This document shows positions 1-13,618 of a DNA stretch of 27,144 nt, one piece after another. The stretch is from Acidobacteriota bacterium. GTDB taxonomy: Bacteria > Acidobacteriota > Thermoanaerobaculia > Multivoradales > UBA5704. The position numbers and the translations under genes were made by a program. Each line of letters starts with the position of its first letter. The stretch's first letter is position 1. The notes beneath the pieces are model-generated. The model did not search any database and was not told where the DNA came from. It worked only from the letters and a program-made list of their open reading frames with translations. Where the stretch lies: contig JBDTZG010000068.1 of assembly GCA_040005235.1 (NCBI GenBank), forward strand, positions 1 to 27,144, in the 5' to 3' direction.

Positions 1-3000
1 CTACTCCGGTTTCCAGACCGGCACGCGACCGGGGGTCCAGGGGGCTCCGGCGGCGTCGAGTTGCGATTCGACCTTCGGCAGTTCCACCTCGACCAGGGCA
101 CGCAGCTTGTCGAGCAGTGGACCGACCTGTTCGGCGGCGATCCGGTAGTTTTCTTGGTGAGTGGCGGTCGGGGCGGAGGTGGAACCCCAGGCCCCGAAGA
201 GGATCTGGTTGACCCGATCGGAGATCGCGAGCGGCACCGGCTCGTTTCTCCTCGAAATCGTCGAGTTGCCGGATAGTTCCACTTCCAGATCTTCGAGCTT
301 CCCTTCGATCGTTTCGAGCTGGGTATAAAGAGCCGGATCCGCCCCCGCCGTCACCTCGACCGCCTTCTTCAGGTGATCGATGCGGGTCTTCGTTTCGTCG
401 ATCAAGCTCCCTGCGCCCATCACCGCCCGCTGGAGCCGGGCGACTTTGGAGTGGAAGGCGAGCACTTGGCGCTGGTCGACGGGCGGGAGAGATCCGAGGC
501 CCAGCGGTTCGGCGCGGAAGGTACGGGCCTCTCCCAGGGGGGTGAGGATGCCGTCGACGCGCTTGGCGAGCTGTACCTTGTAGATCCCAGCGGCGGCGAG
601 CGGACCGTCGATTACGCCACGGCCCGGCTCGGGATCTTCGAGGCTGATCGGCGACTCGGCCGGATAGCGCAGGTTCCAGGCGACCCGGTGGAAACCGGCG
701 GTCGCGTCGCCGATCAGACGGCGCACGACCTGGCCCTGATCGTCGGTCACGGTGAGCACGATCTCCGGTGTCGGCTCCCGCTCTTCGGCCCGCAGCGTGT
801 CCCAAGTCGGGTAGGGATGGATGTCATCGCGGGCAGCTTCGCCTTTCGGGTCTTTTTTCGCCTCGGCCTTCTCGTCCGCCTCCTTCTCCCGCTTCCAGCG
901 CTGCTTCTCCTGGGTGGTGAGACCTTCCTTCAGGTAGTAGGTGAAGACCGCGCCGAACGGCGGATTGGGCGCGGTGAAGAAGGTCGAGCCGCGGAAACCG
1001 GGGCCCGGCTCGCCGCCGGGCGCCGCTTCGATGTACATCTTGGCTGGGCGTAGGTCGAACAGCTCCGCATCCTTCGCGACCGTCGCGGGCGTCGCTTCGC
1101 GCAGCGGCGTGAGGTCGTCGAGCACGAAGAATCCGCGGCCGAAGCTCGCGATCACCAGATCGCCCTCTCGCTTCTGGACCGCGATGTCGCGTACGGCGAC
1201 CGTCGGCAGGCCACCTTTGAGCTGCAACCAACGCTTGCCGCCGTCCTTGGTGAAGAACAGCCCGAACTCGGTCCCGACAAACATGAGGTCAGGAGCGGCG
1301 GGGTCTTGCTTCACGGCATAGGCCGGGCTGGTCTTCGGCAGGTCGCCCACGATCGACACCCAGGTCCGTCCGCGGTCTGCACTCTTCAAGACGTAGGGGT
1401 TGAAGTCGCCCATCTTGTGGTTGTCGAACGCGACGTAGACGACGTTTCCATCGGCGACGCCCGCCTCCAGGCGCGAGACGTAGGCGTTGTCCGGCACGCC
1501 AGGGAACTTTTCGACCTTGCGCCAGTTCGCACCGCCGTCCTCGCTGACCTGGACCAGGCCGTCATCGGTGCCGACGTAGAGCACTCCTTCGGCGACGGGA
1601 GATTCGGCGAGCGAGACGATGTTGCCGAAAAACGAGGTCGAAGCATTCTTCGCGACCGCGTCGATACCCCACACTTTGCCCATCACGGGGAGGAGGTTGC
1701 GATCGACCTGGCGCGTGAGGTCGGGCGAAGCCGGTCGCCACGTGGTGCCCCGGTCGTCGCTGCGGAACAGCCGGTTTGCCGCGAAGTAGAGCCGGCTCGG
1801 AGCATGGGGGCTGATCAGGATCGGCGCATCCCAATTCCACTTGAGCGGCGGCTCCCCTTTGCCCGGCTGGGGCTGGATGTCCACCTGCTCGCCGCTTTTG
1901 CGGTCGTAGCGGACGAGGCCGCCATCCTGCGATTCGGCGTAGACGATGTTCGGATTGACCGGATCGACCTGGCTGAAGAAGCCGTCGCCGCCGCTCGTCA
2001 CGAACCAATCGCCCGAGACGCCGCCATGGATGTTGTTGGTCCGCGACGGGCCGCCCAGGCTGAAATTGTCCTGCGTGCCGCCGTAGACGTAATAGAACGG
2101 TTCGCTGTTGTCCAGCGCGACGCGGTAGAACTGGGTGATCGACAGGTTCGGCGTGTGGCGCCATACCTTGCCGCGGTCAAACGATTCATAGAGGCCGCCG
2201 TCGCAACCGACGAAGAGGTGCCGGGTGTCTTCCGGGTCGATCCAGACGACGTGATTGTCGACGTGCTTGTTCTCCTCGCCGACCGGTTTGAACGTCGTGC
2301 CGCCGTCCTCGGAGACCTGGAGAAAGGTGTCGATCGAATAGACGCGGTCGGCGTCCTTCGGATCGACGAACAGCTCCTGGTAGTACTGAGGCGAGGAGGA
2401 GACGGTTTTGACCGTCCTTTCCCAGCTCGCGCCGCCGTCTTTCGAGCGAAAAAAGCCGCCCGCCTTACGCGTCGATTCGATCGTCGCGTACACCGTGTCG
2501 GGCGCGGTGGGGGCGACCGCGATGCCAATGCGCCCCATGTCCTCCTTCGGTAAGCCACCCGAGAGCTTGGTCCAGGTCGCGCCGCCGTCGCGCGTCTTGT
2601 GAATGCCGGACTCCGGGCCGCCGTCGATCAGGGTCCAGACGTGACGCCGCCGCTGATAGGCCACGGCATAGACGACGTCCGGGTTGCGCGGATCGAACGC
2701 CAGATCCGAGACGCCGGTGTTTTCCGAGATGTCGAGCACCTTCTTCCAGCTCTTGCCGCCGTCGGTCGTCTTGTAGAGGCCGCGGTCGCCGCCGGAAGCC
2801 CAAAGCGGCCCTTGCGCCGCCACCCACACCACTTGTGAGTCGCGCGGGTCGATCAGGATCTTTCCGATGTGCTCGGATTTGCCCAATCCCATGTTCTTCC
2901 AGCTCGCCCCGCCGTCAGTCGACTTATAGACGCCATCGCCCCAGGAGACGCTCCGCTGGCTGTTGTTCTCGCCGCTGCCGGCCCAGATCGTCAGCGAATC

Positions 3001-3519
3001 CTTGGAATCGATCGCCAGGCAACCGATCGAGTTGACCGACTCGCCGTCGAAGATCGGCTGCCAGGTGACGCCCCGATTAGTGCTCTTCCAAATTCCCGCT
3101 GCCGCGGCCGCCAGATAGAGAACGCTCGAATCTCTCGGATCCGCAACGAAATCGGTGATTCGTCCGGACGTGAGCGCCGGCCCGATCCCGCGCAGCTCCA
3201 GCCCCGAGAAGGTATCGCCGTTCCAAGGGTCCTTCTTCTTGGCGTCCTTCTTGGCGTCCTTCGCCTCGGCCCTCTTGAGCTTTGCCTTTTCGTCCTTCTT
3301 CGTCCCCGCGGCGGCCTCCTGTTCGCGCTTCGCCGCGGCCTCGCGTTCGTCTTTCCTCTGCTGTTCTTTGGCGAGCTCTTCCTTTTTCAGCTCTTCCTTC
3401 TTGGTCTTGGTCGGATCTTCCTGCTGCGCGTTCGGCTCTTGCGCAAGAGCCAAGGGCACGAGCCCCGTCACGAAGAGGAGTCCCATAAGGACTGCGAGGG
3501 CGATCACTCTCTGTTTCAA
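1..3519 (-). CDS. Secreted Asp-box (BNR)/VPS10-sortilin-like beta-propeller protein (putative glycosyl hydrolase) with C-terminal coiled coil
   Basis: Many Asp-box repeats (STNRGVTW, STDGGASW, TTDGGKSW, SKDGGASW, SDDRGTTW, SEDGGANW) and the motifs GPALTSGRI and GGTQDN. Start moved from 3639 to TTG at 3519 because GGAG lies 7 nt upstream and a signal peptide follows (MKQRVIALAVLMGLLFVTGLVPLALA-QE). Stop TAG at 1-3. Confidence 0.85.
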   Translation of the reverse strand: MKQRVIALAVLMGLLFVTGLVPLALAQEPNAQQEDPTKTKKEELKKEELAKEQQRKDEREAAAKREQEAAAGTKKDEKAKLKRAEAKDAKKDAKKKDPWNGDTFSGLELRGIGPALTSGRITDFVADPRDSSVLYLAAAAAGIWKSTNRGVTWQPIFDGESVNSIGCLAIDSKDSLTIWAGSGENNSQRSVSWGDGVYKSTDGGASWKNMGLGKSEHIGKILIDPRDSQVVWVAAQGPLWASGGDRGLYKTTDGGKSWKKVLDISENTGVSDLAFDPRNPDVVYAVAYQRRRHVWTLIDGGPESGIHKTRDGGATWTKLSGGLPKEDMGRIGIAVAPTAPDTVYATIESTRKAGGFFRSKDGGASWERTVKTVSSSPQYYQELFVDPKDADRVYSIDTFLQVSEDGGTTFKPVGEENKHVDNHVVWIDPEDTRHLFVGCDGGLYESFDRGKVWRHTPNLSITQFYRVALDNSEPFYYVYGGTQDNFSLGGPSRTNNIHGGVSGDWFVTSGGDGFFSQVDPVNPNIVYAESQDGGLVRYDRKSGEQVDIQPQPGKGEPPLKWNWDAPILISPHAPSRLYFAANRLFRSDDRGTTWRPASPDLTRQVDRNLLPVMGKVWGIDAVAKNASTSFFGNIVSLAESPVAEGVLYVGTDDGLVQVSEDGGANWRKVEKFPGVPDNAYVSRLEAGVADGNVVYVAFDNHKMGDFNPYVLKSADRGRTWVSIVGDLPKTSPAYAVKQDPAAPDLMFVGTEFGLFFTKDGGKRWLQLKGGLPTVAVRDIAVQKREGDLVIASFGRGFFVLDDLTPLREATPATVAKDAELFDLRPAKMYIEAAPGGEPGPGFRGSTFFTAPNPPFGAVFTYYLKEGLTTQEKQRWKREKEADEKAEAKKDPKGEAARDDIHPYPTWDTLRAEEREPTPEIVLTVTDDQGQVVRRLIGDATAGFHRVAWNLRYPAESPISLEDPEPGRGVIDGPLAAAGIYKVQLAKRVDGILTPLGEARTFRAEPLGLGSLPPVDQRQVLAFHSKVARLQRAVMGAGSLIDETKTRIDHLKKAVEVTAGADPALYTQLETIEGKLEDLEVELSGNSTISRRNEPVPLAISDRVNQILFGAWGSTSAPTATHQENYRIAAEQVGPLLDKLRALVEVELPKVESQLDAAGAPWTPGRVPVWKPE

Positions 3520-3619
3520 GGCGCTGCTCCTATCAGTGGTTACGCGACTGTGCCGGCGGGAGGCACACGGGCTCCCGGAAGCATACGGCGGCAGGAGCCA
3601 GAAGGTTCTGGCCGCCCCC

Positions 3620-6600
3620 CTACCGAACCGCCATCCCATCCGGCTCCCGGCCGGTCTCGATCACCCGCACGACATCCAGGCTTTCAGTGTCGATTTCGAT
3701 CACCCGGTCGGATTGCGTGGCGGCGACGTAGGCGCGTCTTCCCGAAGGGGCGAAGAGGAGGCCCACGGGAGCGGGGCTGTTGGCGAAGCGATCGCCGAAA
3801 AGGCGATCTTTCGCTTCGGCGACGACGCTCAAGTCGAGCTTTTTCCTCAGCGTTTCGCGTTTCCGCACCGGGTCGATGGCGACCACTTCTCCCGATTTGG
3901 TGGCGGTGACCAGGGCGCGCAGGCCGCGCGGGGAAAAGGCGATGCGAATGGGATAGCCGGAGCAAGGGACGGTGGCGATCACCGTGAGGCGATCGGCGTC
4001 GATGACGGACAGCGTGTCGGCTTCGCGGTTGGTCACCCAGACCTCCCTCGTGCCGGGGCGGAAGGCGATCCCTTCGGCGCCGGCTCCGGTGGGGATGTCC
4101 TTCAACTTCTGGCCGGTCCCTAGGTCGATCACGGTGACGCTGCCCGAGCCGATATTGGCAACGAACGCGCGGTTCCCTTCCGGGGTCACCGCGACCATGT
4201 GGGAAATCTCCTGCCCGGTTGCCACCGCTCGCACGATCTGGCCCTCGCGCGGTTTGACGATCAGCAGCTCGCCGCTTCCCTCGGCGGTCACCGCGAGGTA
4301 TTGAGGACCTAGCCAGGCGAGGCCATGCGGTTTCTTGGGGGCGCCGAGATCAACTTTCTTGACGACGCTACGCGTCGCCAGGTCGATCACCGTGAGGCTC
4401 GATCCCGGCTCCGCCTTCGTGCCGTAGTCGCTCACCACCAGTGTCGTTCCGTCCGGCGAGATCGCCGCCTCGTGCGGGCCGTTGCCGGTCGGAATCGTTG
4501 CGCGGCTCTTGCCCGTCGCGGGATCGACCAGATCGACGCTCGCGTCGGATTTCCTCACGATCGCGAGGGTCTCAGCCGGCTCGACGAGCCAACGGCGGAA
4601 CCAGCCGACCGTCTGGGCGTAGCGCTCGCGCTCGCCCTCGTTGTTCAGCCGGTGCCCTTGGTCGGGGAAAATGTATAGCTCGGAGGGAACTCCCAGACGG
4701 CGCAGCGCCTTCCAGAATTCATACCCCTGCGGCGCCGGCACCTCCGAATCGCGTTCGCCATGGAGCATCAGCGTCGGAGTCTTGGCGTGGGAGACGAAGG
4801 TGATCGGCGAGCTGCGCGCGTAGATCCACGGGTCTTCTTCGACGGTCGCACCGAAGAACGGCACGAGCCAGTCATCGATCCGGTTCTGGCCCGCGTAGCT
4901 CTGCCAATTCGAGATGCCCGCTCCGGCGACAGCCGCCGCAAAGCGATCGCTCTTGGCCACCGCCCACATGACCATGTAACCGCCGTAGCTCCAGCCGAAG
5001 ATCCCCACCTGGCCCGGATCGATCGGCGCCGCCTTCGGTGCGTTGGCGACGGCAGCATCCACGCCTCGCTCGATGTCGCGGAAATCGCCATAGCCGAAAT
5101 CCTTGAAGTTCGCGGCCTGGAACGCAGCGCCACTTCCGAAGCTGCCGCGCGGGTTGGGCATCAGGACGTAGAACCCCGCCTCCGCGAGGACTCCCGCTAT
5201 GGTCGGCCAGCCGGAGTGATGCGCCGAGGACGGACCGCCGTGGACCAGCACGATCATCGCCTGACGTTTGCCCGGTTCGGGATGGAGCGGCGGAAGGAGC
5301 CAGCCTTGGATGTCCAAGCCGTCGCTCGTCCACCGCAGGTCTTTTGCCGCGCCCCAAAGCGGATGGACTCCGGCGTTTCGACGCGTGATCTGGCGCCAGC
5401 CGCCGATTTCTCCGGCCCAGATCTCGGGGGGATGCTCGAACGAATGGCGGATCATGGCCGAGGTCTTCCCGTCCGCGGCGAGCGAAAGACCGATCGCCCC
5501 TCCGGCGAGAACGAAGGATTCGGCCCCGCGCCATCGGCTCTCGATCCTTCCGGTCGCAAGCTCGACGGTCGAGATGCCGGTCGAGCCGGCGATGTTTTCC
5601 ACCCAGAGCAGACGGTCGGGGCTGGACCAGGCGAACCAGGCGGGCGACGCGGCGAAACCCGGCGTCAGGTTTCGCGCTGCGGGCCGTTGGGTGCCCTCAT
5701 TTCCGGAGGACGTATCCAAGGGGAGCGTCCAGACATCGCCGCCGGTCGAGCCGGCATCGCTCATCAAGCCTTCGATCCAGGCGACGTTACGTCCGTCGGG
5801 CGACCAGCGCGGCATGGCGATCTGAACCTTGGGCTCGTAGAGGACCCTTCCCGCCGGGGCTGTGGCGTCGAAACGCATTAGTTTGGCCACCCACCATTTC
5901 GCGTCCCCCTCCCCGTGGGCCGCCGTCGCGACGAACGCCGAGCCGTCGGGCGAGGCGTCGTACTCGTAGACGAATAGATCCGCGGGCGAGACCCACCGGA
6001 GCGCGCCGTTTGCAGCTTCGAACCGGGCGATTCGTTGAACGTCCGGATGATCGCCGACCAGGCCCGCGTCGCGCGGATGCGCCGCGAGCGGCCCTGCCGC
6101 ATCCATCCGCCCTTCGATCGCCAAAGCCGTGAGGCCCAGGCCGTCCGGCAGCCAGCGCAGATCGGCGAGCTGGCCGGCAAACCCGGTCAGGCGCCGAACC
6201 GCCGGACGGGACGTGCCGCCTTTCTTTCCGGCAGCCGGGGAGGGCGCGAGGTCGGCGAGCCAGATCTGGAGCTGCGGACTGCGGCCGTCGTCGGCAAGGA
6301 ACGCCAATCGCCGGCTGTCGGGCGAAAACGCCGGAACGGCGGCAGCGTCGCCGGGCAGATCGATCGTGGTCGGAGTCGGAGGCGAGGTCTCTGGAGAGTC
6401 GGCGGAAAGCACCGCGGTGCGGAGTGCGAGCTTGCCCGAAGGGCGGCCGTCGGCGTCGAGCAGCGCTTCCACCCAGGCGACCCGGCGGCCGTCCGGCGCG
6501 ATCGCGACGTCGCGAAAGCCCGTTCCGGCATGGAGGGCGGCTTCGATCGGATCGATCGCCGGATGAGGCGCGATCGGCGGCTTAGGGTCGGCCGCACCGA

Positions 6601-6664
6601 CCGGCAATACCGCGAGCCAAGTTCCAAGAAGCCCGAGAGCTCCGAGACGCCAATTCCGCTGCAT
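3620..6664 (-). CDS. Secreted S9-family (prolyl oligopeptidase/acylaminoacyl peptidase-like) serine peptidase fused to a C-terminal YVTN/YncE-type beta-propeller
   Basis: Signal peptide; PD40-like repeats (SPDSRRLAF, WSPDGRNVAW); HGGP, NPRGS, nucleophile GWSYGG, Asp in HGERD, His in DQGH. About 315 aa of YVTN-like repeats follow (IPTGNGPHEAAISPDG, IPTGAGAEGIAF, IETGREPDGMA). GGAGG RBS upstream. Confidence 0.85.
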   Translation of the reverse strand: MQRNWRLGALGLLGTWLAVLPVGAADPKPPIAPHPAIDPIEAALHAGTGFRDVAIAPDGRRVAWVEALLDADGRPSGKLALRTAVLSADSPETSPPTPTTIDLPGDAAAVPAFSPDSRRLAFLADDGRSPQLQIWLADLAPSPAAGKKGGTSRPAVRRLTGFAGQLADLRWLPDGLGLTALAIEGRMDAAGPLAAHPRDAGLVGDHPDVQRIARFEAANGALRWVSPADLFVYEYDASPDGSAFVATAAHGEGDAKWWVAKLMRFDATAPAGRVLYEPKVQIAMPRWSPDGRNVAWIEGLMSDAGSTGGDVWTLPLDTSSGNEGTQRPAARNLTPGFAASPAWFAWSSPDRLLWVENIAGSTGISTVELATGRIESRWRGAESFVLAGGAIGLSLAADGKTSAMIRHSFEHPPEIWAGEIGGWRQITRRNAGVHPLWGAAKDLRWTSDGLDIQGWLLPPLHPEPGKRQAMIVLVHGGPSSAHHSGWPTIAGVLAEAGFYVLMPNPRGSFGSGAAFQAANFKDFGYGDFRDIERGVDAAVANAPKAAPIDPGQVGIFGWSYGGYMVMWAVAKSDRFAAAVAGAGISNWQSYAGQNRIDDWLVPFFGATVEEDPWIYARSSPITFVSHAKTPTLMLHGERDSEVPAPQGYEFWKALRRLGVPSELYIFPDQGHRLNNEGERERYAQTVGWFRRWLVEPAETLAIVRKSDASVDLVDPATGKSRATIPTGNGPHEAAISPDGTTLVVSDYGTKAEPGSSLTVIDLATRSVVKKVDLGAPKKPHGLAWLGPQYLAVTAEGSGELLIVKPREGQIVRAVATGQEISHMVAVTPEGNRAFVANIGSGSVTVIDLGTGQKLKDIPTGAGAEGIAFRPGTREVWVTNREADTLSVIDADRLTVIATVPCSGYPIRIAFSPRGLRALVTATKSGEVVAIDPVRKRETLRKKLDLSVVAEAKDRLFGDRFANSPAPVGLLFAPSGRRAYVAATQSDRVIEIDTESLDVVRVIETGREPDGMAVR

Positions 6665-6702: not shown

Positions 6703-8019
6703 TTAGCCGATGCGCCCTCCATCGCCGCCGCGGAACTTGAGATCTCGATCGACAGACGCCTCGCGAAGGTAGGCGGACAACCGGTTCACGAAGGAGAGCG
6801 TGACCTTCTCCCGCCTTGCGGCCTCTTGGAACAGCACGAGCGACGCGAGCGCTTCACGGTGAATGTCCTGTGCCTGAAAGATCGGAATCATCGCCTCGGC
6901 GAGAAAGCGAACCTCTTCGCCCCGGCCCGCGCGAAGGTAGAACGCGGCGAGGTCCATGGAAACGATCGCGGCATCAAAGCCCATCTTCCGATCGAGGAAC
7001 GCGTCGCGCGCTGCGACGAGCGAAGCCTCTGCGGCCTCCAACCGCCCTATGCCGTCCGCCACCAGGCCCCACAGCCACTCCCGCCGAATCAAGAAAACGG
7101 GGCCGCCATGGGCTGCGAAAAGCTCCGCGTCTTCATCGAACGACTCGGACGCTTCCTCGTGCCGGCCGGAAGCGACGAGATAAGAGGTTAGATTGTGTCG
7201 AGCGCAAAGATAATCCTGGATGTCCAGATCTGGACGGATCTCGCGGAACGCGTGCTCAAGCGTCGAGATGGCGCGGATCGGATCACCGCGATAAAAATGG
7301 ACATCGGCCAAGATCAGCTTCACCTTCGCCAGCCGCTCCTCGCGTCCCGCGATCTGGTAGAGCGCGAGCGCACGTCCCAGCAGATCCTCTGCCTGGTCGA
7401 AGCGACGCTGGTCCTTGCGCAGAGATCCTTCCAAGTCGTCAACCTCGGCGAGGACTGCCAAATCTGTCACGTCTTGAGAGTGGAGCAGGAAGCGGACGTA
7501 CTCAAAGTGGCGGTCTGCTGTTCGAAGATCCCCCTGAGCCCGGCAGGCATTTCCCATCGCGGCGGCGGCCAATACATGTAAGTCAAAAGAGTTCGCTGAA
7601 CGGTCGGCGATTGAAAGTGCCAGCGCGGCCAAGTGATAGGAGACGTCGCAGTCCTCGCGTAGCGCCTCGCGGGAGGCTCCGAGGAGGCGACGCACGAGTG
7701 CAGGCCCGCGAAATCGGGAGCGCGAACGGGCGACTCGTGCCGGCCGCGCACCGACGGGCAATGCAATCAGCTCGGCGAAATCGCGGGTAGCCTGCTCTTC
7801 CGCCTCGGCAATTTTCGTCGTTGAAGCCGCCAGTAGTGGCACCATCAGCCTGGGATCGACGGCCCGATCCGATTCGAGAGGGCTTTCTCGCCAAGCGGCG
7901 ACCTCGCGCGCACAGCAGGGGCAGAGAGACGTCAAATGCTCCAAGCCGACCCGGGCTAGAAGCCGGGGCGGTAGGTCGCCGTTTGCGACCGCACGCAATA
8001 GATCCCGCGTGATGTGCAT
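6703..8019 (-). CDS. Cytoplasmic tetratricopeptide-repeat protein with N-terminal His/Cys zinc-binding (anti-sigma ZAS-like) motif
   Basis: RBS AGGGAGG directly upstream of ATG. N-terminus MH...EHLTSLCPCC. TPR-like helices (AMGNACRAQGDLRTADRHF, LEGSLRKDQRRFDQAEDLLGRALALY, LADVHFYRGDPIRAISTLEHA, HNLTSYLVASGRHEEA). No signal peptide or TM segment. Confidence 0.8.
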   Translation of the reverse strand: MHITRDLLRAVANGDLPPRLLARVGLEHLTSLCPCCAREVAAWRESPLESDRAVDPRLMVPLLAASTTKIAEAEEQATRDFAELIALPVGARPARVARSRSRFRGPALVRRLLGASREALREDCDVSYHLAALALSIADRSANSFDLHVLAAAAMGNACRAQGDLRTADRHFEYVRFLLHSQDVTDLAVLAEVDDLEGSLRKDQRRFDQAEDLLGRALALYQIAGREERLAKVKLILADVHFYRGDPIRAISTLEHAFREIRPDLDIQDYLCARHNLTSYLVASGRHEEASESFDEDAELFAAHGGPVFLIRREWLWGLVADGIGRLEAAEASLVAARDAFLDRKMGFDAAIVSMDLAAFYLRAGRGEEVRFLAEAMIPIFQAQDIHREALASLVLFQEAARREKVTLSFVNRLSAYLREASVDRDLKFRGGDGGRIG

Positions 8020-8103
8020 CAGATCCTCCCTCGGACCAGAAATTCGATTTCGATGGGGCTATTACCCAACTAGGTGAGAGAACTTGGGATTTCGTGACAA
8101 GAG

Positions 8104-8143
8104 CAAGAAAGGGCTGCGAGCGGCAACCTGCCGTTCGCAGCCC
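8104..8143 (-). terminator. Intrinsic terminator downstream of the DPNG prepeptide gene
   Basis: Minus strand reads GGGCTGCGAACGGCA-GGT-TGCCGCTCGCAGCCC (15-bp stem, one mismatch) followed by TTTCTTG, 12 nt after the stop codon at 8156. Confidence 0.7.
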
Positions 8144-8155
8144 TGACGGCCTCAT

Positions 8156-8407
8156 TCAGCCATTGGGATCGACGGTAACGCCCCTCTCTGCGGTAGAGGT
8201 TCCGCCTGAATCGGCCCCGGGGGCGGCGGGCGTTGGCCGGCCGTTGGGATCGATCGTACCGCCACGATCCGAAGCAGCCCACACGGCCTGCGGGTGACTC
8301 TCTCCGCCGAGAAATCCGTGGAACAGCTGTTCCAAACGACCGAACCAGGAGCCGTCGGCGAAGAGCAGACCTGCGAGGAGAAGCGAAGAAGCGGAGCGAC
8401 GAAACAT
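8156..8407 (-). CDS. Small secreted prepeptide (83 aa) with two [DE]RG[GV]T[IV]DPNG core repeats; putative signalling-peptide precursor
   Basis: Strong RBS AGGGAGGT about 5 nt before ATG. Basic/hydrophobic N-terminus MFRRSASSLLLAGLLFA, then an amphipathic segment WFGRLEQLFHGFL. Repeats DRGGTIDPNG and ERGVTVDPNG, the second ending at the stop. Followed by a terminator. Confidence 0.75.
   Translation of the reverse strand: MFRRSASSLLLAGLLFADGSWFGRLEQLFHGFLGGESHPQAVWAASDRGGTIDPNGRPTPAAPGADSGGTSTAERGVTVDPNG
8159..8269 (-). repeat. Two imperfect 30-nt repeats encoding DRGGTIDPNG (8240-8269) and ERGVTVDPNG (8159-8188)
   Basis: 7/10 identical amino acids, with D/E and I/V conservative. Several identical residues use different codons (CGT/AGG, ACG/ACC, AAC/AAT), which points to protein-level conservation. 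Confidence 0.8.
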
Positions 8408-8557
8408 GAAGCACCTCCCTCATCGAGGATGCTGCCGGCCGCGCCTCTTTGGCCCGGTGGCGCGACCCTCCCAAGGAAAAAGGTGCCGGAAAAGAGAATT
8501 TTCAAGTAGCGATCCGCCAACGGCGACTCAAAAATGCGGCTTACGCTCGCTCACCGC

Positions 8558-11263
8558 CTAGAGCTGAGCACGCACCTCGGCCAGTCGGCGGGCGAGCTCA
8601 TGGGCGGAGTCCGGACGCCGGGTGCGCGCCCTGTGCAGCGTGCCCCGGAACAGCTCGACCAGCGCTTTCGGGGTGTCCGGCCGTTCGGCAGCAAGGTCAG
8701 GAACCCGAACCAGCTGGATTCGCACGCTCAGCTGCCGGTCGTTGTCGCCGGAAAACACCTTGCGTCCCAGCAGACATTCGAACAACACGACCGACAGGCT
8801 CCAGAGGTCGCAGGCCACGTCCGGCGCCCCGCCGTTCAAGATTTCGGGCGCGAGGTACGGCAGCGTCCCGGCCATGACGTGCGAGGCCGTCGAAGCGGTC
8901 GAGGCGTTGGCGGCCGCCGCCCTCTCCCGGCTCGTTCCGGTGGAACTGCCGGGCCGTCCGCCGATCCAGGTAGGCGGCAACAGGGTCGAGTCGATGTCCT
9001 CCTGCGGCAGCTCGGAGTTCCTCGGGCTCTCGCGCTCCGTGCTTCCCGGAGCGCGGGCGATGCCGAAGTCCATCAGCTTCGGCACGCCCTCGCCCGAGTA
9101 GCCGATGTTGCTCGGCTTGACGTCGCGATGAAGGATATCGGCCTCGTGCAGCCGCTCGAGCGCCCCGGCCATCGCGATCCCCAGATCGATGGTTTCGAGC
9201 GGAGATAGCTGACCTTCCGTCAGGCGGTCGGCGAGCGTGCCCCCGGCCAGATATTCAAAGATCATGATCGGCGTGCCGAGCCACGTTTCGATGCCGTACA
9301 CCCCGGCGAGATGGGTATGAGAAAAACGCGCCGCCGTCCGCGCCTCGCGGCGCAGACGCACCGCGTCCTCCGGCGAGACCCGACGCAAGGTCTTCGCCGC
9401 GATCGGGCGGCCGAGCGCGAGATCCGTACCACGATAGACGACGCCCATTCCCCCAATGCCGAGCCGCTGCTCGAAACGGTAACGACCGGGCAGGATGTAC
9501 GGAATCGGCGCCGACTCCAAGCGGTGGCTGCACTTGCCGCAATAGACCAGGAAGGCGCGGTACAGCCCGCCGCAACTGAGGCACTCGCGCGCGGCCTCCG
9601 CGGCCGGCCCGAATCGCTCCGGCTCGGCGCGGCTCGGATCGTCATGAGGTGCGCTCTCTTCGATCGGACGGGCGGCTTCGCGCTCGCGGCTGGACTGCAG
9701 CTCCAACCCAAGCGCCGCGGTCCGCGCAACGTCCGCGAGCAGCCGCCGATCCTCGCGCAGAAACGGCAGCTCGCTCTTCTTTGTGCCGAGCGCGATCACC
9801 CCGAGCAGCGAACCGCTGGCCGCTTGAATCGGCACCAGGAGCCGCAGCTCGGCGTCGGCCAACCAATGGCGATCGGCCTCCGGCAGCAGAGCGAGCGGCG
9901 AGCGCGGATTTTCGAGGTCGACGTCCAGTGGTTCGCTCGCCTCGGCGATTTTGAGCCCGAGCGGCGAAGAGGCATCCAACCGCCGCGCCCGGCGGCGCGG
10001 ATCTTCGAGCTGGCCGGTTCGGTGATCCTCCAGGAGCAGCGCCGAATGCTCCAAGTGAAGCGCCCGGTCGATGCCGCCGAGGATCAGGTTCGCCAGATCT
10101 TCGGGACTTGCCGCGGTGCGGATCCGCTGGACCAACTCAGTCAGGATCTGGCGGGCATCTACCTGTTCCCGGAAGAAATGCCGGTCGAGCGCGGCGAGGA
10201 TCGGCCGCCGGAACCAGAGCATCGCCAGCCCGACCGCCGCGGGAAAACCCAGGCGCAGCACTTTCCCTTCTGAGAAGACTTCGCCGATCGGCCGCGCCCG
10301 TTGCTCGAAGAGGTACCAGACCATCAAGCCAAACGGGATCGCCCCCAGCGCGACCACTGTCGCGCGGGCCATGGCGTAACTGACGATACCTCTCGCGATC
10401 AATCGCAGGTCGAGCACCTGATGGACCAGCACCGCGTAAGCGGAAGTGAACGGCACCGACCAGAGAAACGAAAAGCAGAGCGCGATCAGCAGCGCCCGGT
10501 GAGCGGCGAAAGCGGCTCCGATCGGCGGCACGACGGCGCCGAGCACGAACTCACCGAAGTTCGCGACGACCATCGGCGCGAAGCCGAGCAACAAAGCCCC
10601 CAACAAGAGACGGACGCGGCGGCGGTCTTCCCCGGTTTCGCCCCGTAAACGCCAGGCGATCATGCCCAATCCTGGCACCAAGGCGGTGAAGACGAACCCC
10701 CAGAACAGACTGCCGTCTTCGCGATCGAGCATCGCGCCCCACCGGGAGAGCGGCATTCCGGCGATCTGTTGGAAGGCGCCGAAAAGGTTCACCGCGAAGA
10801 GGATCACGCCTCCCCAGGTGGTCAGCCGAACCGCTGCCGATCCGAGTCGGCGCTCGTACCAATCGAGGTGCCCGTGAGGAAAGCGGAGCGCGAAGCGCCA
10901 GAGGAACAGCGGTAAGAAGGCATCCACCTCGAGTTCTTCGAGAAGCTTCGGTAGTACCCCCCATCCGGGCAGCCGCGCCCCCGCTTCGGCCCAGATCCGC
11001 AGCGGGGCGTTGTCGAACGTCGAAGCGAGCAGGAGATAGAGAACGCCCAGGTCGAACGCCCGCCGGTCGTTGCGACCGCCGATCAGGAACACCAGGGCGC
11101 CGAGCGCGAACGCCCCGGCCGAGAGGACACCGCGGTAGTCCGCGAGCCATCCGGTGCCGATCGGGACCAGCGCCCCCGGCACGCTCAGATATGCCACGAA
11201 GGTGGCGGCCACCTTGACCAGCGCCACCGCCACCAAGAGGTGAACCCAACCGCTCCGTTTCAT
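8558..11263 (-). CDS. Polytopic membrane Hanks-type Ser/Thr protein kinase (multi-TM sensor - GAF - zinc ribbon - kinase)
   Basis: About 9-10 hydrophobic segments in the first ~355 aa; linker LDRHFFRE; GAF-like region (LLVPI...LLGVIALGTKKSELPFLREDRRLL); CLSC-x10-CGKC; kinase motifs GIGGMGVVY, IAAK, REAR, HRDVKPSN, DFG, GTLPYLAPE, DLWSL. RBS AGGGAGGG upstream. Confidence 0.9.
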   Translation of the reverse strand: MKRSGWVHLLVAVALVKVAATFVAYLSVPGALVPIGTGWLADYRGVLSAGAFALGALVFLIGGRNDRRAFDLGVLYLLLASTFDNAPLRIWAEAGARLPGWGVLPKLLEELEVDAFLPLFLWRFALRFPHGHLDWYERRLGSAAVRLTTWGGVILFAVNLFGAFQQIAGMPLSRWGAMLDREDGSLFWGFVFTALVPGLGMIAWRLRGETGEDRRRVRLLLGALLLGFAPMVVANFGEFVLGAVVPPIGAAFAAHRALLIALCFSFLWSVPFTSAYAVLVHQVLDLRLIARGIVSYAMARATVVALGAIPFGLMVWYLFEQRARPIGEVFSEGKVLRLGFPAAVGLAMLWFRRPILAALDRHFFREQVDARQILTELVQRIRTAASPEDLANLILGGIDRALHLEHSALLLEDHRTGQLEDPRRRARRLDASSPLGLKIAEASEPLDVDLENPRSPLALLPEADRHWLADAELRLLVPIQAASGSLLGVIALGTKKSELPFLREDRRLLADVARTAALGLELQSSREREAARPIEESAPHDDPSRAEPERFGPAAEAARECLSCGGLYRAFLVYCGKCSHRLESAPIPYILPGRYRFEQRLGIGGMGVVYRGTDLALGRPIAAKTLRRVSPEDAVRLRREARTAARFSHTHLAGVYGIETWLGTPIMIFEYLAGGTLADRLTEGQLSPLETIDLGIAMAGALERLHEADILHRDVKPSNIGYSGEGVPKLMDFGIARAPGSTERESPRNSELPQEDIDSTLLPPTWIGGRPGSSTGTSRERAAAANASTASTASHVMAGTLPYLAPEILNGGAPDVACDLWSLSVVLFECLLGRKVFSGDNDRQLSVRIQLVRVPDLAAERPDTPKALVELFRGTLHRARTRRPDSAHELARRLAEVRAQL

Positions 11264-11296
11264 CGCGGCGCGAACCCTCCCTTTAGGAACGCGCCA

Positions 11297-11620
11297 TTAG
11301 GTTTGCGCCGATGGGCAATAGGGTGTGCCCGATTCGCTCTCGACAGTCAGGCAGGCGCTCTCCATCGTCGTCGCGGAGATCGATCCTCCGCTGGAAAGCG
11401 AAGCGGCGAGCGCGCCGATATCGCGGCAGCGGTCGAGAATATCGCCACCGATCGTGCTCCAGGCATCCTGCGGCGTTCCACGGCCGGGTTGAGAGGTCAC
11501 GATCCAAGCATAACCGTGATTCTCCAAGTAAGTCGCGGCGGCTTCTTCGAGCGAGGCTCCGCCTGCCCCCTGACCGATGGCAAACACCATTTCTCCGTAG
11601 ATCGTGTCCTGACTCGGCAT
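11297..11620 (-). CDS. Small acidic Ser/Thr-rich protein (107 aa), possible histone-fold-like protein, co-transcribed with the kinase
   Basis: GGAGGAG RBS (11627-11633) 6 nt before ATG at 11620 (MPSQDTIYGEMVFAIGQGAG...TPYCPSAQT). Sigma70 promoter upstream; 33-nt gap to the kinase start. The fold assignment is inference from the helix pattern only. Confidence 0.7.
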   Translation of the reverse strand: MPSQDTIYGEMVFAIGQGAGGASLEEAAATYLENHGYAWIVTSQPGRGTPQDAWSTIGGDILDRCRDIGALAASLSSGGSISATTMESACLTVESESGTPYCPSAQT

Positions 11621-11699
11621 GTTCGTCTCCTCCACGAACGCGAAATCCCGAGCCGGAATGGCGCAGGATGCGCTCATGTGACTGAAAACTTTTGTTTGC

Positions 11700-11728
11700 A
11701 GTGTAGAGACGAAATGAAGCAATTGCAA
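11700..11728 (-). promoter_or_regulatory. Sigma70-type promoter for the small protein-kinase operon
   Basis: Minus strand TTGCAA-N17-TACACT in a locally AT-rich stretch, about 80 nt upstream of ATG 11620. Confidence 0.65.
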
Positions 11729-11785
11729 CGACTGGATTGGGGCGCGCCAGCCGGACACGCCCCGATTCGGGAGGACTGTCGGCGC

Positions 11786-12403
11786 CTAGTACTTGACCGA
11801 GCAGCCGTACGGCTGGGTCACGGCGGGGTTCAGGGGCCGGCCCGCCAGCTCGGCGCCAAGGCCGGAATCTACGTAGTTCACCCGAGCCGGCTTCGCCTTG
11901 CGGCCGCTCGGGTCGTCGTCGATCGCGCCGTTGTAGGCGATCTTTCCCGTCGGATCGACGATGAACATGTGGGGCGTGGTCTTTGCGCCATAGGCATGGC
12001 CGACGTTGCCGGTCGGATCGTAGAGAATCGAGTAGCCGATGCCGTTTTTCTTCGCCCAAGCCAGGTGCTCGGCGGGCGGCAGGTAGTCCTGATGCTTGGG
12101 GTTCGTGCTGTTGATTCCGAGCCAGACCACCTGAGCGTACTTCTTGTTCAGGTCGACCATGGTCTTCTCCCGCGCCTGGCGGTCGGAGAACGGACAGTTC
12201 GGGTTGATCCATTCGAGCACCACGACCTTGCCCTGATACTGATCGAGCGACTGCACCTTGCCGTTCAGGTCGGTGAGCTTCCAAGCGGGAGCTTTTTCGC
12301 CCACCGCAACGGTCGCCGCCGCGGGCAGGGTCCCGAACGCAAGAACTGCCCCAAGCGCCAGGCTGGCGGTGACGAGTGCGGTACGAATTCTCTTCATCTT
12401 CAT
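11786..12403 (-). CDS. Secreted thioredoxin-fold redoxin (AhpC/TSA, peroxiredoxin-like)
   Basis: Signal peptide; VGEKAPAWKLTDLNGK; VVLEWINPNCPF; YGAKTTPHMFIVD; YNGAIDD; C-terminal YGCSVKY. Confidence 0.85.
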   Translation of the reverse strand: MKMKRIRTALVTASLALGAVLAFGTLPAAATVAVGEKAPAWKLTDLNGKVQSLDQYQGKVVVLEWINPNCPFSDRQAREKTMVDLNKKYAQVVWLGINSTNPKHQDYLPPAEHLAWAKKNGIGYSILYDPTGNVGHAYGAKTTPHMFIVDPTGKIAYNGAIDDDPSGRKAKPARVNYVDSGLGAELAGRPLNPAVTQPYGCSVKY

Positions 12404-12448: not shown

Positions 12449-13618
12449 TTACCGGCAGGCCCTCCGGCGGAAAAGCCAGAAGGCGAGCCCCAGCCCGAGC
12501 AGAGCAAGCTCGATGCCCGCCAGCCCCGGCGCCGTCACCCGGATCGCGAGCAGATAAAGACAGGCGACGACGAGGCCGAGCGCGGCAAAGCCGAGCAGGC
12601 CGCGCCCGAGGCTCGCGGATTCCTTCCCCCAGAGCGCCATGGCCACTGCCAGGAACCCCGCGGCGAGCACGGCCAGCAGGATCGGCATCCATTTCACCGC
12701 GGAGCGTGAAGCTTGGGAGGCCGCGACGGAACCCGGCGTGGCGAGCTGCCGCCGCACTTCCAGAGCGACCGGCGCCCCTTTCTCGACCAGGCCGACCGCG
12801 GTGAAGGCGAGGGGAAATCTCTTCGGTAGAGGGAGATCGGTCCGGCGCGGCACCAGCGGCAGCTCGAAACGGACGCCGCCCGGCAACCGCAGGACGACCG
12901 GCCGGCCGATCTCGAACAGCTCCTGAGGCTCGACGAACAGGTCGGAAGCGGGCGAAGCCTCGACACCTTCGAGCTCGATGTCGAGGACGAGGGAAGACGC
13001 CGAACGCGCCAGCTCGGCACGGACCGCGACGCCCGGAAGCGTGCCATCCCGGCGGGGTAGCGACTCTTCGGCCCGATCGAGCAGCGGCGCGGTCTCCGAA
13101 TCGTCGGCCGACGCCGGAGCGAGGGCCAGGTCGAGCGCCAGGCGGTAGCGGTAGGGGACGCAGTCGACTTCGCAGGTCAAGTAGTCGACGTCCGCCTCGA
13201 TCCGCACACTCTTGGCTCCCGCCGGGGCTAAGTACTGCCGGGGTTTGAGCGGATAGACGACCTCCCCCTCGTAGCCGATCGCGAACAGGCCGCCGGAGAG
13301 CGCAAAGCGACGCGGCGCGGGAAACTCGATCTCGACCGTCGGCTCTCGGCCCACCAGCTCCGGCGGCGCGAGCAGATCGACGCGCGGCGGAAACCCCGCG
13401 TCGCCCGGGTTCTTCCAGTAGACGTGCCAACCGGGCGCGGTGCGGAACTCGACGCCGAGGCGGATCGGCGCCTCGTTCCCGGACGCCAAAGCGGATTCGG
13501 CGGCGATCAGGCGGACCGCCCCGTGCGGGTTCGTCTGCCAGGGACTCGTAGCGGCGGCCGCCAGGGCAGGCAGCGCTAGGCCCGAGAGAAGTGCGATCGG
13601 GGGCAGTAACGTTTTCAG
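12449..13618 (-). CDS. DsbD N-terminal (Ig-like CxxxC) domain protein with three C-terminal TM helices; probable CTG start
   Basis: APGWHVYWKNPGDAG and YLTCEVDCVP motifs. The frame extends 43 codons upstream of the called TTG (13489) to CTG 13618, giving a signal peptide (MKTLLPPIALLSGLALPALAAA) with GGAGG 9 nt upstream. Confidence 0.75.
   Translation of the reverse strand: MKTLLPPIALLSGLALPALAAAATSPWQTNPHGAVRLIAAESALASGNEAPIRLGVEFRTAPGWHVYWKNPGDAGFPPRVDLLAPPELVGREPTVEIEFPAPRRFALSGGLFAIGYEGEVVYPLKPRQYLAPAGAKSVRIEADVDYLTCEVDCVPYRYRLALDLALAPASADDSETAPLLDRAEESLPRRDGTLPGVAVRAELARSASSLVLDIELEGVEASPASDLFVEPQELFEIGRPVVLRLPGGVRFELPLVPRRTDLPLPKRFPLAFTAVGLVEKGAPVALEVRRQLATPGSVAASQASRSAVKWMPILLAVLAAGFLAVAMALWGKESASLGRGLLGFAALGLVVACLYLLAIRVTAPGLAGIELALLGLGLAFWLFRRRACR

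Follow-up and report, generated by a model that had tools for sequence, protein, structure and literature searches.

The small gene and the adjacent kinase gene

The stretch of DNA analysed here (the window) comprises 27,144 nucleotides (nt) of contig JBDTZG010000068.1 in the genome assembly GCA_040005235.1 of an Acidobacteriota bacterium from the class Thermoanaerobaculia. Its minus strand encodes a small acidic protein of 107 amino acids (aa) and, immediately downstream, a large membrane-bound Ser/Thr kinase, which together probably form an undescribed signalling pair. The two genes and the spacer between them are arranged as follows.

11297..11620, minus strand: small-protein gene (107 aa), ATG at 11620 and TAA at 11297-11299
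11264..11296, minus strand: 33-nt spacer from the small gene to the kinase gene, containing the ribosome-binding site of the kinase gene, AGGGAGGG
8558..11263, minus strand: kinase gene (901 aa; polytopic membrane GAF / Cys4-ribbon / Hanks-type Ser/Thr kinase), ATG at 11263

An earlier interpretation made from the sequence alone (the sequence-only reading) had described this two-gene operon, and all of its coordinates and anatomy were verified, namely, the 107-aa open reading frame (ORF), its ribosome-binding site GGAGGAG (11633-11627), located 6 nt 5' of the ATG, and the 33-nt gap to the kinase gene. A computed scan found no terminator-like site in this spacer, and co-transcription of the two genes is therefore likely. 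The amino acid composition claimed for the small protein was exact on recomputation (12 Asp/Glu, 3 Arg, no Lys, 23 Ser/Thr and 3 Cys), which corresponds to an isoelectric point (pI) of 4.05, with the C-terminus TPYCPSAQT. In line with the claimed lack of a signal peptide, no hydrophobic signal-like segment was seen at the N-terminus on inspection by eye.

A word-indexed protein search with the small protein returned 18 proteins, 15 of which are 107-108 aa long and 66-88% identical; the other three are a 143-aa protein with a miscalled start (P0009) and two frameshifted fragments. The source names of these homologues, where given, all belong to Thermoanaerobaculia. The 15 proteins of 107-108 aa back the ATG at 11620 as the start codon. 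The longest frame over the gene starts from GTG at 11758 and would encode 153 aa, but this extension is not conserved as protein; the warning that the start could easily be miscalled was justified, since the database entry P0009 carries such an extension. Four DNA sequencing runs from two studies contain the stretch wholly or partly, and no RNA run is listed among the archive matches. Many long open frames are to be expected in high-GC DNA, and the small ORF could in principle be a non-functional chance frame; however, the conserved length of 107 aa, the strong ribosome-binding site, membership in a family of 66 clusters, and the ratio of nonsynonymous to synonymous substitution rates (dN/dS) of 0.17-0.24 against five orthologues, indicative of purifying selection, refute this explanation and leave it practically no chance. 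The 107-aa ORF is a genuine conserved gene.

Genomic linkage of the small gene and the kinase gene

In close relatives of the window, a long ORF opening with MKRS(G/V)W follows the small gene in six of six genome loci. The alignment covered four of these ORFs, which are 79-95% identical to the window kinase; one of the loci (L006) ends at the contig edge. Cases at medium distance came from a metagenome scan seeded with four family members of the CPxCP type, which yielded 11 loci. One of them (L073) was spurious and was excluded, being a 26-residue match in DNA with a GC content of 0.47 and containing no family ORF. In each of the other ten, the small gene encodes a protein 28-38% identical to that of the window, and a sequence homologous to the kinase membrane domain comes next (E 7e-6 to 3e-43); where the contig is long enough, homologues of the GAF and kinase parts complete the order.

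A sample of 401 Acidobacteriota genomes was searched in both directions. The small-protein profile matches seven of the genomes, in five of which, including that of the window, the match adjoins a Pkinase protein of 830-951 aa. A GAF domain (E<1e-3) is present in the window kinase and in three of the four other scanned kinases located beside a small gene in this sample. A match in genome G206 (E 3.4e-4) was rejected as spurious, as it contains an internal TAG. In the reverse direction, the first 350 residues of the kinase matched 36 of the 401 genomes, and in 13 of them the matches were strong and full-length (E<=5e-16), at 15 places in total. The first family profile detected an adjacent small gene (E<0.01) at nine of the 15 places, and a profile of divergent members found further adjacent genes in L057, L055, L058, L054 and L062, bringing the total to 13 of 15; the latter profile was built from nine kinase-adjacent members and so matches those by construction.

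The order of the two genes varies. The small gene precedes the kinase gene in the window clade, in G357, G021 and G015 and in the metagenome loci, and follows it in G383, G391, G134 (both loci), G268 (both loci), G325 and G098, while in G093 the two genes are in divergent orientation. Among the genomes with matches, G093, G110, G325 and G357 consist of 1-3 contigs and may derive from cultivated Acidobacteriota. Since gene order differs among the loci, the adjacency appears to have been maintained rather than inherited as a single block, and its survival through rearrangement is good evidence of a functional tie between the small gene and the kinase. The proposal of a conserved module with a transmembrane GAF kinase is thus upheld by the neighbourhood survey, in which the linkage is reciprocal, spans a wide divergence and occurs in both gene orders.

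Several loci carry additional copies of the module or of its parts. A second pair, consisting of a small gene of the short-hinge subfamily (see below) and a second membrane kinase, stands right behind the first in two loci (L069:8082-10300 and L072:8166-10300). Two near-identical loci have tandem small genes (L063:3810-4682 and L064:151-1023). The module is multiplied in L055 and L057 as well; where two small genes stand in tandem, they precede or follow a single kinase gene.

The small-protein family and its C-terminal cysteine

A profile of the small protein was compared by hmmsearch with 1.84 billion cluster representatives, with no length limit and at E<=1e-3. It matched 66 representatives, 14 of them at E<=1e-10. 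Three long repeat proteins with short-stretch matches (P0055, P0065 and P0069) and a 39-aa fragment (P0061) were left out of the 66. The remaining members are mostly 100-117 aa long; tandem doublets of 234-249 aa account for six of them, and several (P0035, P0082, P0062, P0080 and P0071) are extended at the N-terminus, where Pfam gives no useful match. No fusion to a kinase or an ATPase occurs among the 66 representatives. The small protein is matched by no model of Pfam (E<=0.1), NCBIfam or PADLOC; in PADLOC it and two relatives match 0 families, and the kinase matches only via its generic kinase domain. Neither the family nor the kinase module is described in the papers reached by full-text searches. 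On this coverage, the pair is a Hanks-kinase signalling module with a new sensor architecture and a new, histone-related partner family.

In an alignment of 49 members, residues G18, W54, G69 and C102 do not vary at all and E94 hardly does. The median pI of the family is 5.06, and five of the 49 members have a pI >8. The C-terminus of most members reads VE..S.CP-aromatic-CP, and the invariant C-terminal cysteine is usually the second of a pair, in the pattern CP-x(1-27)-aromatic-C. In divergent kinase-linked members the two cysteines are 6 to ~27 residues apart, often with a Gly-rich stretch between them; the last cysteine stands directly after an aromatic residue or Val, 1-7 residues short of the C-terminus. 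In the window clade and in the short-hinge subfamily the first cysteine is replaced by Thr or Ser (TP-aromatic-CP), and the window clade conserves C65 and C90 in addition to the C-terminal cysteine. The only member found with no kinase gene nearby, in genome G176 of the phylum sample (L018:8992-9657), is extended by a long stretch at the N-terminus, and its C-terminus is acidic and devoid of cysteine; the kinase membrane domain has no match in that genome.

A subset of members, which differ from the acidic majority, carry Lys/Arg-rich tails at the N-terminus and sometimes at the C-terminus, with pI values of 9-10.7 (L059:3699-4150, minus strand; L021:9055-9408; L019:8856-9206; L061:4588-5067; also P0079 and P0073). 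Nucleic acid or acidic membrane could be what these tails bind. A conserved (S/T)-P preceding helix 50-57 was considered as a phosphorylation site and rejected as unsupported, because S/T-P-x-[DE] resembles a helix N-cap and the motif is absent from the short-hinge subfamily.

Predicted fold of the small protein

In passages of Alva et al. 2007 (PMC1847821), a closed helix-strand-helix bundle is presented as the precursor of the histone fold, the length of the hinge determines whether the monomer stays closed or a swapped dimer forms, so that a shortened hinge turns the closed bundle into the swapped histone fold, and the bridge of the closed bundle is proposed as a protein-binding site. The window protein has a long conserved Pro/Gly hinge, and a separate short-hinge subfamily exists, examples being the G357 orthologue and the second small gene of L069 and L072.

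The AlphaFold model of the monomer, computed with 15 sequences, reached a mean predicted local distance difference test (pLDDT) of 74.7 and a predicted template modelling score (pTM) of 0.69. According to DSSP it consists of a helix at 4-19, a bridge residue at 24, a helix at 26-42, a break, a helix at 50-75, a bridge residue at 81, a helix at 83-97 and the tail, and these positions agree with the map of helix, loop, long interrupted helix, loop and helix drawn in the sequence-only reading. As residues 24 and 81 are the only bridge residues of the monomer model, they presumably pair with each other. The model of a natural doublet (seven sequences) is better defined (pLDDT 83.7, pTM 0.83) and contains helix, bridge, helix, hinge, helix, bridge and helix in each half. 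That doublets exist, with halves packed confidently in the model, suggests that the single-domain members work as dimers.

A single bridge residue occurs in each inter-helix loop of each unit in both models (DSSP), as in lid-type bundles. The conserved Pro/Gly hinge (residues 43-49) splits the middle helix in the models, so that the unit would be one of ~100 residues with a broken middle helix and not a histone with a continuous alpha2 in ~65 residues. AAA+ proteins are likewise not matched in overall build, the small protein being stand-alone, at 100-117 aa, with no ATPase polypeptide.

Foldseek searches against the PDB returned nothing at E<=0.001 with either model; weak matches to AAA+ lids and to the histone HMk (1f1e) headed the results. 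An exhaustive structural aligner placed 1f1e first for the monomer (Z 8.8, root-mean-square deviation (rmsd) 3.1 over 96 residues, chain residues 4-154), followed at Z 5-6.8 by numerous AAA+ lids and by the lid-like domain of DNA polymerase epsilon subunit B, and by doublet histones and DUF1931 (1wwi) at Z 4.6-5.3. The AAA+ lid alignments cover ~70 of 75 lid residues at rmsd 2.5-3.3. The halves of the doublet, aligned separately, gave the same list with 1f1e at Z 7.4, and the entire doublet matched nothing.

At the sequence level, the family profile had two matches at E<=10 among all PDB sequences, the second being 1f1e (E 0.83) in two aligned segments: the first helix-strand-helix motif corresponds to alpha1-L1-alpha2 of HMk fold 1, and the second to alpha2-L2-alpha3 of fold 2. 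The profile of the short-hinge subfamily (A9) had four matches, with 1f1e the best (E 0.042) and HMfB the fourth (E 1.2), which are borderline values; both alignments fall at alpha2C-L2-alpha3. The likening of the second loop to the RKT-type loop of histones in the sequence-only reading is echoed by these HMMER alignments to HMk and HMfB. No AAA+ lid was matched in the PDB profile searches, and the Pfam histone model PF00808 has no match in the entire genome at E<=1.

At the level of the models, the small protein holds as a closed, un-swapped bundle of two helix-strand-helix motifs belonging to the histone/AAA+ lid fold class. It would be a closed bundle rather than half of a handshake because one ~100-aa unit aligns to the entire HMk pseudo-dimer and to complete AAA+ lids. 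The histone fold suggested in the sequence-only reading is partly supported: HMk is the best match in both structure and sequence, results that are concordant but borderline, and the handshake fold itself is not supported, the AlphaFold model being a closed two-motif bundle with a hinge-broken alpha2 and the Pfam histone model silent. The argument of the same reading that acidic charge speaks against DNA binding agrees with the pI values of the protein and of its family; with 0 Lys and 3 Arg, its composition is not that of a basic DNA-binding surface.

Two other comparisons gave no usable signal. An internal repeat between the first and the second helix-strand-helix motif was not significant (hhalign, nine columns in register at L1/L2, P 0.069). 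A feature match in the ESM Atlas to DUF2920 and hydrolase fragments (0.91, 133 shared features) was attributed to chance, true kin typically sharing 170.

Domain organisation of the kinase

The kinase comprises four parts, all encoded on the minus strand.

10208..11263, minus strand: aa 1-352, membrane domain with ~10 hydrophobic segments, belonging to no Pfam family
9710..10105, minus strand: aa 387-518, GAF domain (PF01590, 35.8 bits, cut-off 22.4)
9530..9583, minus strand: aa 561-578, CxxC-x10-CxxC ribbon, its four Cys invariant in 18 of 18 aligned kinases
8585..9481, minus strand: aa 595-893, Hanks-type catalytic domain (PF00069, 126.9 bits, cut-off 31.7)

The conserved motifs of the membrane domain include a GGR.DRRA loop and DAFLP.F.W.FA..FP. 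Because the catalytic residues K624, D714, N719 and the DFG motif at 732-734 are invariant in the same 18 kinases, the enzyme should be active. All NCBIfam equivalog models score far below their cut-offs; the best of them, the PASTA kinase model NF033483 (176 bits), aligns to the catalytic domain only, and a weak match to PrsK (TIGR02916, E 5e-4) is confined to the GAF region. A Ser/Thr/Ala-rich insert of ~55 residues (8780-9040; aa ~742-798) is found between DFG and APE; the window clade has its longest form, distant kinases have a short one or none, and it is a candidate autophosphorylation region.

Region upstream of the small gene

Two elements were recognised between the small gene and the next gene upstream.

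11700..11728, minus strand: promoter-like element TTGCAA - 17 nt - TACACT, 8 of 12 consensus positions, read from the sequence
11621..11699, minus strand: conserved 5' leader with a predicted hairpin (RNAalifold, orthologue comparison)

The sequence-only reading had called the promoter a clean sigma70 promoter. The -35-like TTGCAA (11728-11723) and the -10-like TACACT (11705-11700) each agree with the sigma70 consensus at four positions, and a promoter scan of 8300-12000 called nothing, so that the word clean is not borne out. The element itself is largely conserved: in seven orthologous upstream sequences (the window and loci L004-L009), TTGCAA or TTGCAT with the 17-nt spacing is kept in four and TA[CG]ACT in five. 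A promoter upstream of the small gene is thus plausible, albeit not a clean one. The upstream block of ~130 nt as a whole (11621-11735, minus strand, and its counterpart in L004-L009) is conserved in DNA at synonymous divergences (dS) of 0.25-1.2. The predicted hairpin of the leader ends just 5' of the ribosome-binding site; RNAalifold gives it 21 pairs, of which four show compensatory changes, with a weak covariation term. At gathering thresholds, Rfam has no match anywhere in the window, the leader included.

Neighbouring genes

The genes flanking the pair in the window, all on the minus strand, are listed here from upstream to downstream.

12449..13489, minus strand: DsbD_N-domain membrane protein, upstream of the redoxin gene
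11786..12403, minus strand: exported AhpC/TSA-redoxin-like protein, its gene the nearest one upstream of the small gene
6703-8019, minus strand: 438-aa TPR protein with a CxxC pair at its N-terminus, downstream of the kinase gene
3620-6664, minus strand: 1014-aa exported S9 peptidase with a beta-propeller, downstream of the kinase gene
1-3639, minus strand: 1212-aa Sortilin/BNR-repeat protein, downstream of the kinase gene

A homologue of the redoxin is encoded upstream of the small gene in eight of the ten metagenome loci, and a DsbD-like homologue in all three of those that reach that far; a DsbD_N protein is found upstream in G357 too. The redoxin has a single cysteine in its active-site region N-P-N-C-P-F-S and a conserved one in its C-terminal end Y-G-C-S-V-K-Y, which is kept in all eight metagenome homologues, and this suggests an atypical two-Cys mechanism. 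Between the redoxin gene and the small gene there is a gap of 165 nt with the conserved promoter-like block.

In five distant loci the kinase gene and the small gene are followed by a gene for a protein of 380-420 aa with invariant Cys19, His142 and Asp171 (L019:9219-10415, L021:9417-10661, L059:2471-3727, L061:3373-4587 and L058:3669-4817). Two of the three such proteins that were scanned show sub-threshold matches to Peptidase_C39_2 (E about 2e-3), and they are referred to below as C39-like. Exactly in these five loci the small protein is Gly-rich between its two cysteines and ends 1-2 residues after the last one.

On the downstream side, the 538-nt stretch from the kinase stop codon to the next gene (8020-8557) is without a convincing ORF and matches nothing in Rfam. 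L004, L005 and L009 likewise have the TPR gene and the 1014-aa gene after the kinase gene; in L007 the TPR gene comes after an extra 380-aa gene, and in L008 a 1049-aa gene stands directly after the kinase gene.

Proposed function and alternative explanations

We give somewhat better than an even chance to the view that the small protein is a closed-bundle cytoplasmic partner of the adjacent kinase, either a regulator or a substrate, whose short flexible Cys-containing tail acts as a thiol or metal switch. The kinase would sense a membrane or envelope signal by its domain of ~10 helices together with GAF, and the small protein would dock on the cytoplasmic part of the kinase as a regulatory subunit or as its first substrate. 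The Cys tail, as a thiol switch of the redox or metal type, would then gate the activity of the kinase or report it. The tail is proposed as the thiol-acting working end because its terminal cysteine is invariant while the spacing of the cysteines varies, and because it is lost in the unlinked member of G176. In the lineage of the window the input may be envelope thiol-redox or metal stress, which is proposed because the pair lies directly behind genes for a DsbD-like protein and an exported redoxin. Such an arrangement is reminiscent of envelope redox or copper systems of the DsbD/Scs type. Four elements of this scheme are inferred: that the two proteins bind physically, in which direction regulation runs, that phosphorylation occurs and what the thiol chemistry is. 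Co-folding of kinase residues 1-890 and the small protein, with a separate alignment for each, gave a score of 0.00 (mark 0.32) and is evidence for neither side.

Several observations weigh against the partner role or parts of it. Two of the 15 strong kinase loci (G285 and G110) have no detectable partner gene. The named linked loci all belong to Acidobacteriota, and the metagenome contigs are similar in GC content and synteny and seem to come from that lineage too, so that the linkage events are not fully independent. The thiol switch is suggested by two things, the invariant cysteine and the neighbouring redox genes; the window clade does not have the first cysteine of the pair, and the redox genes are absent from more distant loci, which have C39-like, DUF4097 or MacB-like neighbours instead. 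As to the fold, the monomer model is moderately confident only, with two of the five models at pLDDT 53-57, and the structural Z-scores are, by the tool's own warning, within the range that helical bundles reach by arrangement alone.

The protein might instead be a true histone, i.e. a domain-swapped handshake dimer on DNA that serves as a kinase-controlled nucleoid protein. The HMk pseudo-dimer is the best structural match of both models and the best PDB match of the short-hinge profile, HMfB being among its other matches; the natural tandem doublets are reminiscent of double histone folds; some members with Lys-rich tails reach pI 8.7-10.7 (the five of 49 with high pI and further tails); and a short-hinge subfamily exists in which the swapped fold might be expected from the passages of Alva et al. 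2007 (PMC1847821) on hinge shortening. However, the protein of the window has no Lys at all and its family is acidic at the median, the long-hinge models are closed monomeric bundles with a Pro/Gly hinge of 7-15 residues in which one unit spans both HMk folds, PF00808 is silent, and the E-values against PDB sequences are borderline, which makes this explanation quite improbable. Another role would be that of a precursor of a Cys-containing peptide signal or of a ribosomally synthesised and post-translationally modified peptide (RiPP), in which a leader of ~95 aa is followed by a tail that is cleaved or cyclised, with the kinase as the receptor in the manner of Agr or Com. The C39-like protein encoded after the small gene in five distant loci, where the tails are Gly-rich and end with an aromatic residue or Val, a cysteine and 1-2 residues, would fit this role, as would the Ser-, Thr- and Cys-rich tail of the window protein and the polytopic membrane sensor encoded beside it. 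Against it, the tail region VE..S.CP.CP is conserved and not hypervariable; no linked gene encodes an exporter or a maturase such as a cyclase or dehydratase, the window pair has no C39-like gene nearby, and neither a membrane nor an ABC part is obvious in the C39-like proteins. Conserved cysteines, 2 to ~27 residues apart, flank the Gly-rich stretch, and for that reason a loop fits better than a cleavage site. With a conserved tail and neither a C39 peptidase/ABC exporter nor a maturase linked in the window, the small gene does not resemble a RiPP or double-glycine precursor, and we consider this origin very improbable.

It is equally hard to credit that the real partner of the small protein is the upstream DsbD-like/redoxin pair, for instance with the small protein as a CxxC electron donor, and that the adjacency to the kinase is incidental. 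The synteny of the DsbD-like, redoxin, small and kinase genes is kept as far as metagenome loci at ~36% identity, and CPxCP is a CxxC-type motif. Yet the distant loci retain the adjacency of small gene and kinase without DsbD or redoxin, a 165-nt gap and a promoter-like block separate the small gene from the redoxin gene as against 33 nt to the kinase gene, and the first cysteine of the CxxC is missing from the window clade. The role as a partner of the kinase is therefore the one that we prefer. A bolder version of it, which we regard as unlikely, would make the family an extant relative, in closed form, of the histone fold, closer in sequence to the histones of archaea than to any AAA+ lid, and the dedicated output of a one-step transmembrane Ser/Thr-kinase pathway, in which the long-hinge members would be closed acidic regulators, the short-hinge and tandem members would be swapped histone-like dimers, and the Lys-tailed ones would bind DNA under the control of the kinase. 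If true, it would offer a natural series across the bundle-to-histone swap and a bacterial signalling axis from a kinase to a histone fold.

Significance

Acidobacteriota and other soil phyla are rich in bacterial Hanks-type kinases, and, to our knowledge, very few of these have a known input, partner or substrate. The present analysis defines a family of sensor kinases with ~10 membrane helices, a GAF domain and an invariant Cys4 ribbon that has a genetically dedicated partner, which makes this kinase pathway directly testable. The bundle of the partner has an archaeal histone as its nearest neighbour in both sequence and structure, and the long hinges, short hinges and natural doublets within the family provide a series for testing the origin of histones by hinge shortening and swapping that is put forward in passages of Alva et al. 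2007. About 66 clusters of 'hypothetical proteins' gain a definable family, with the signature G, W, G and a C-terminal cysteine.

Comparison with known systems

The top structural match, the histone HMk of Methanopyrus kandleri (PDB 1f1e), is a DNA-binding protein with a double histone fold in a single chain. The two motifs of the small protein align with its two folds, but one unit of ~100 aa covers both folds of HMk, and the small protein differs further in its Cys tail and in the acidic character of its family. With the AAA+ lids and the N-terminal domain of DNA polymerase epsilon subunit B (2v6z, Z 6.2) it has in common, as modelled, a four-helix bundle with one beta-bridge; in contrast to AAA+ lids, it has no ATPase core, is longer (~100 versus 75 residues), ends in a Cys tail and shows no sequence match to them. 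The bacterial histones HBb/Bd0055 and DUF1931 (1wwi, Z 4.6) are likewise small and bacterial and have histone-type helix-strand-helix motifs. DUF1931 double histone folds and bacterial histones bind DNA or are basic. According to the abstracts on HBb, this protein is DNA-binding or basic, unlike that of the window. In the prokaryotic histone survey of Schwab et al. 2024 (PMC11390915), no linkage to kinases is described, the word 'kinase' occurring once, for a labelling enzyme, and the terms 'Acidobacteri', 'acidic' and 'cysteine' occur 0 times.

The catalytic core of the kinase is common to the Hanks-type membrane kinases of the PknB/PrkC class, as reflected in its NF033483 score of 176 bits, but the window kinase contains no PASTA or FHA domains and its partner comes from a new family. 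It resembles the PrsK-like GAF sensor kinases in having a polytopic membrane domain followed by GAF, the match to TIGR02916 being weak, and differs from PrsK in that its membrane domain belongs to no Pfam family and that a Cys4 ribbon is inserted between the GAF and kinase domains.

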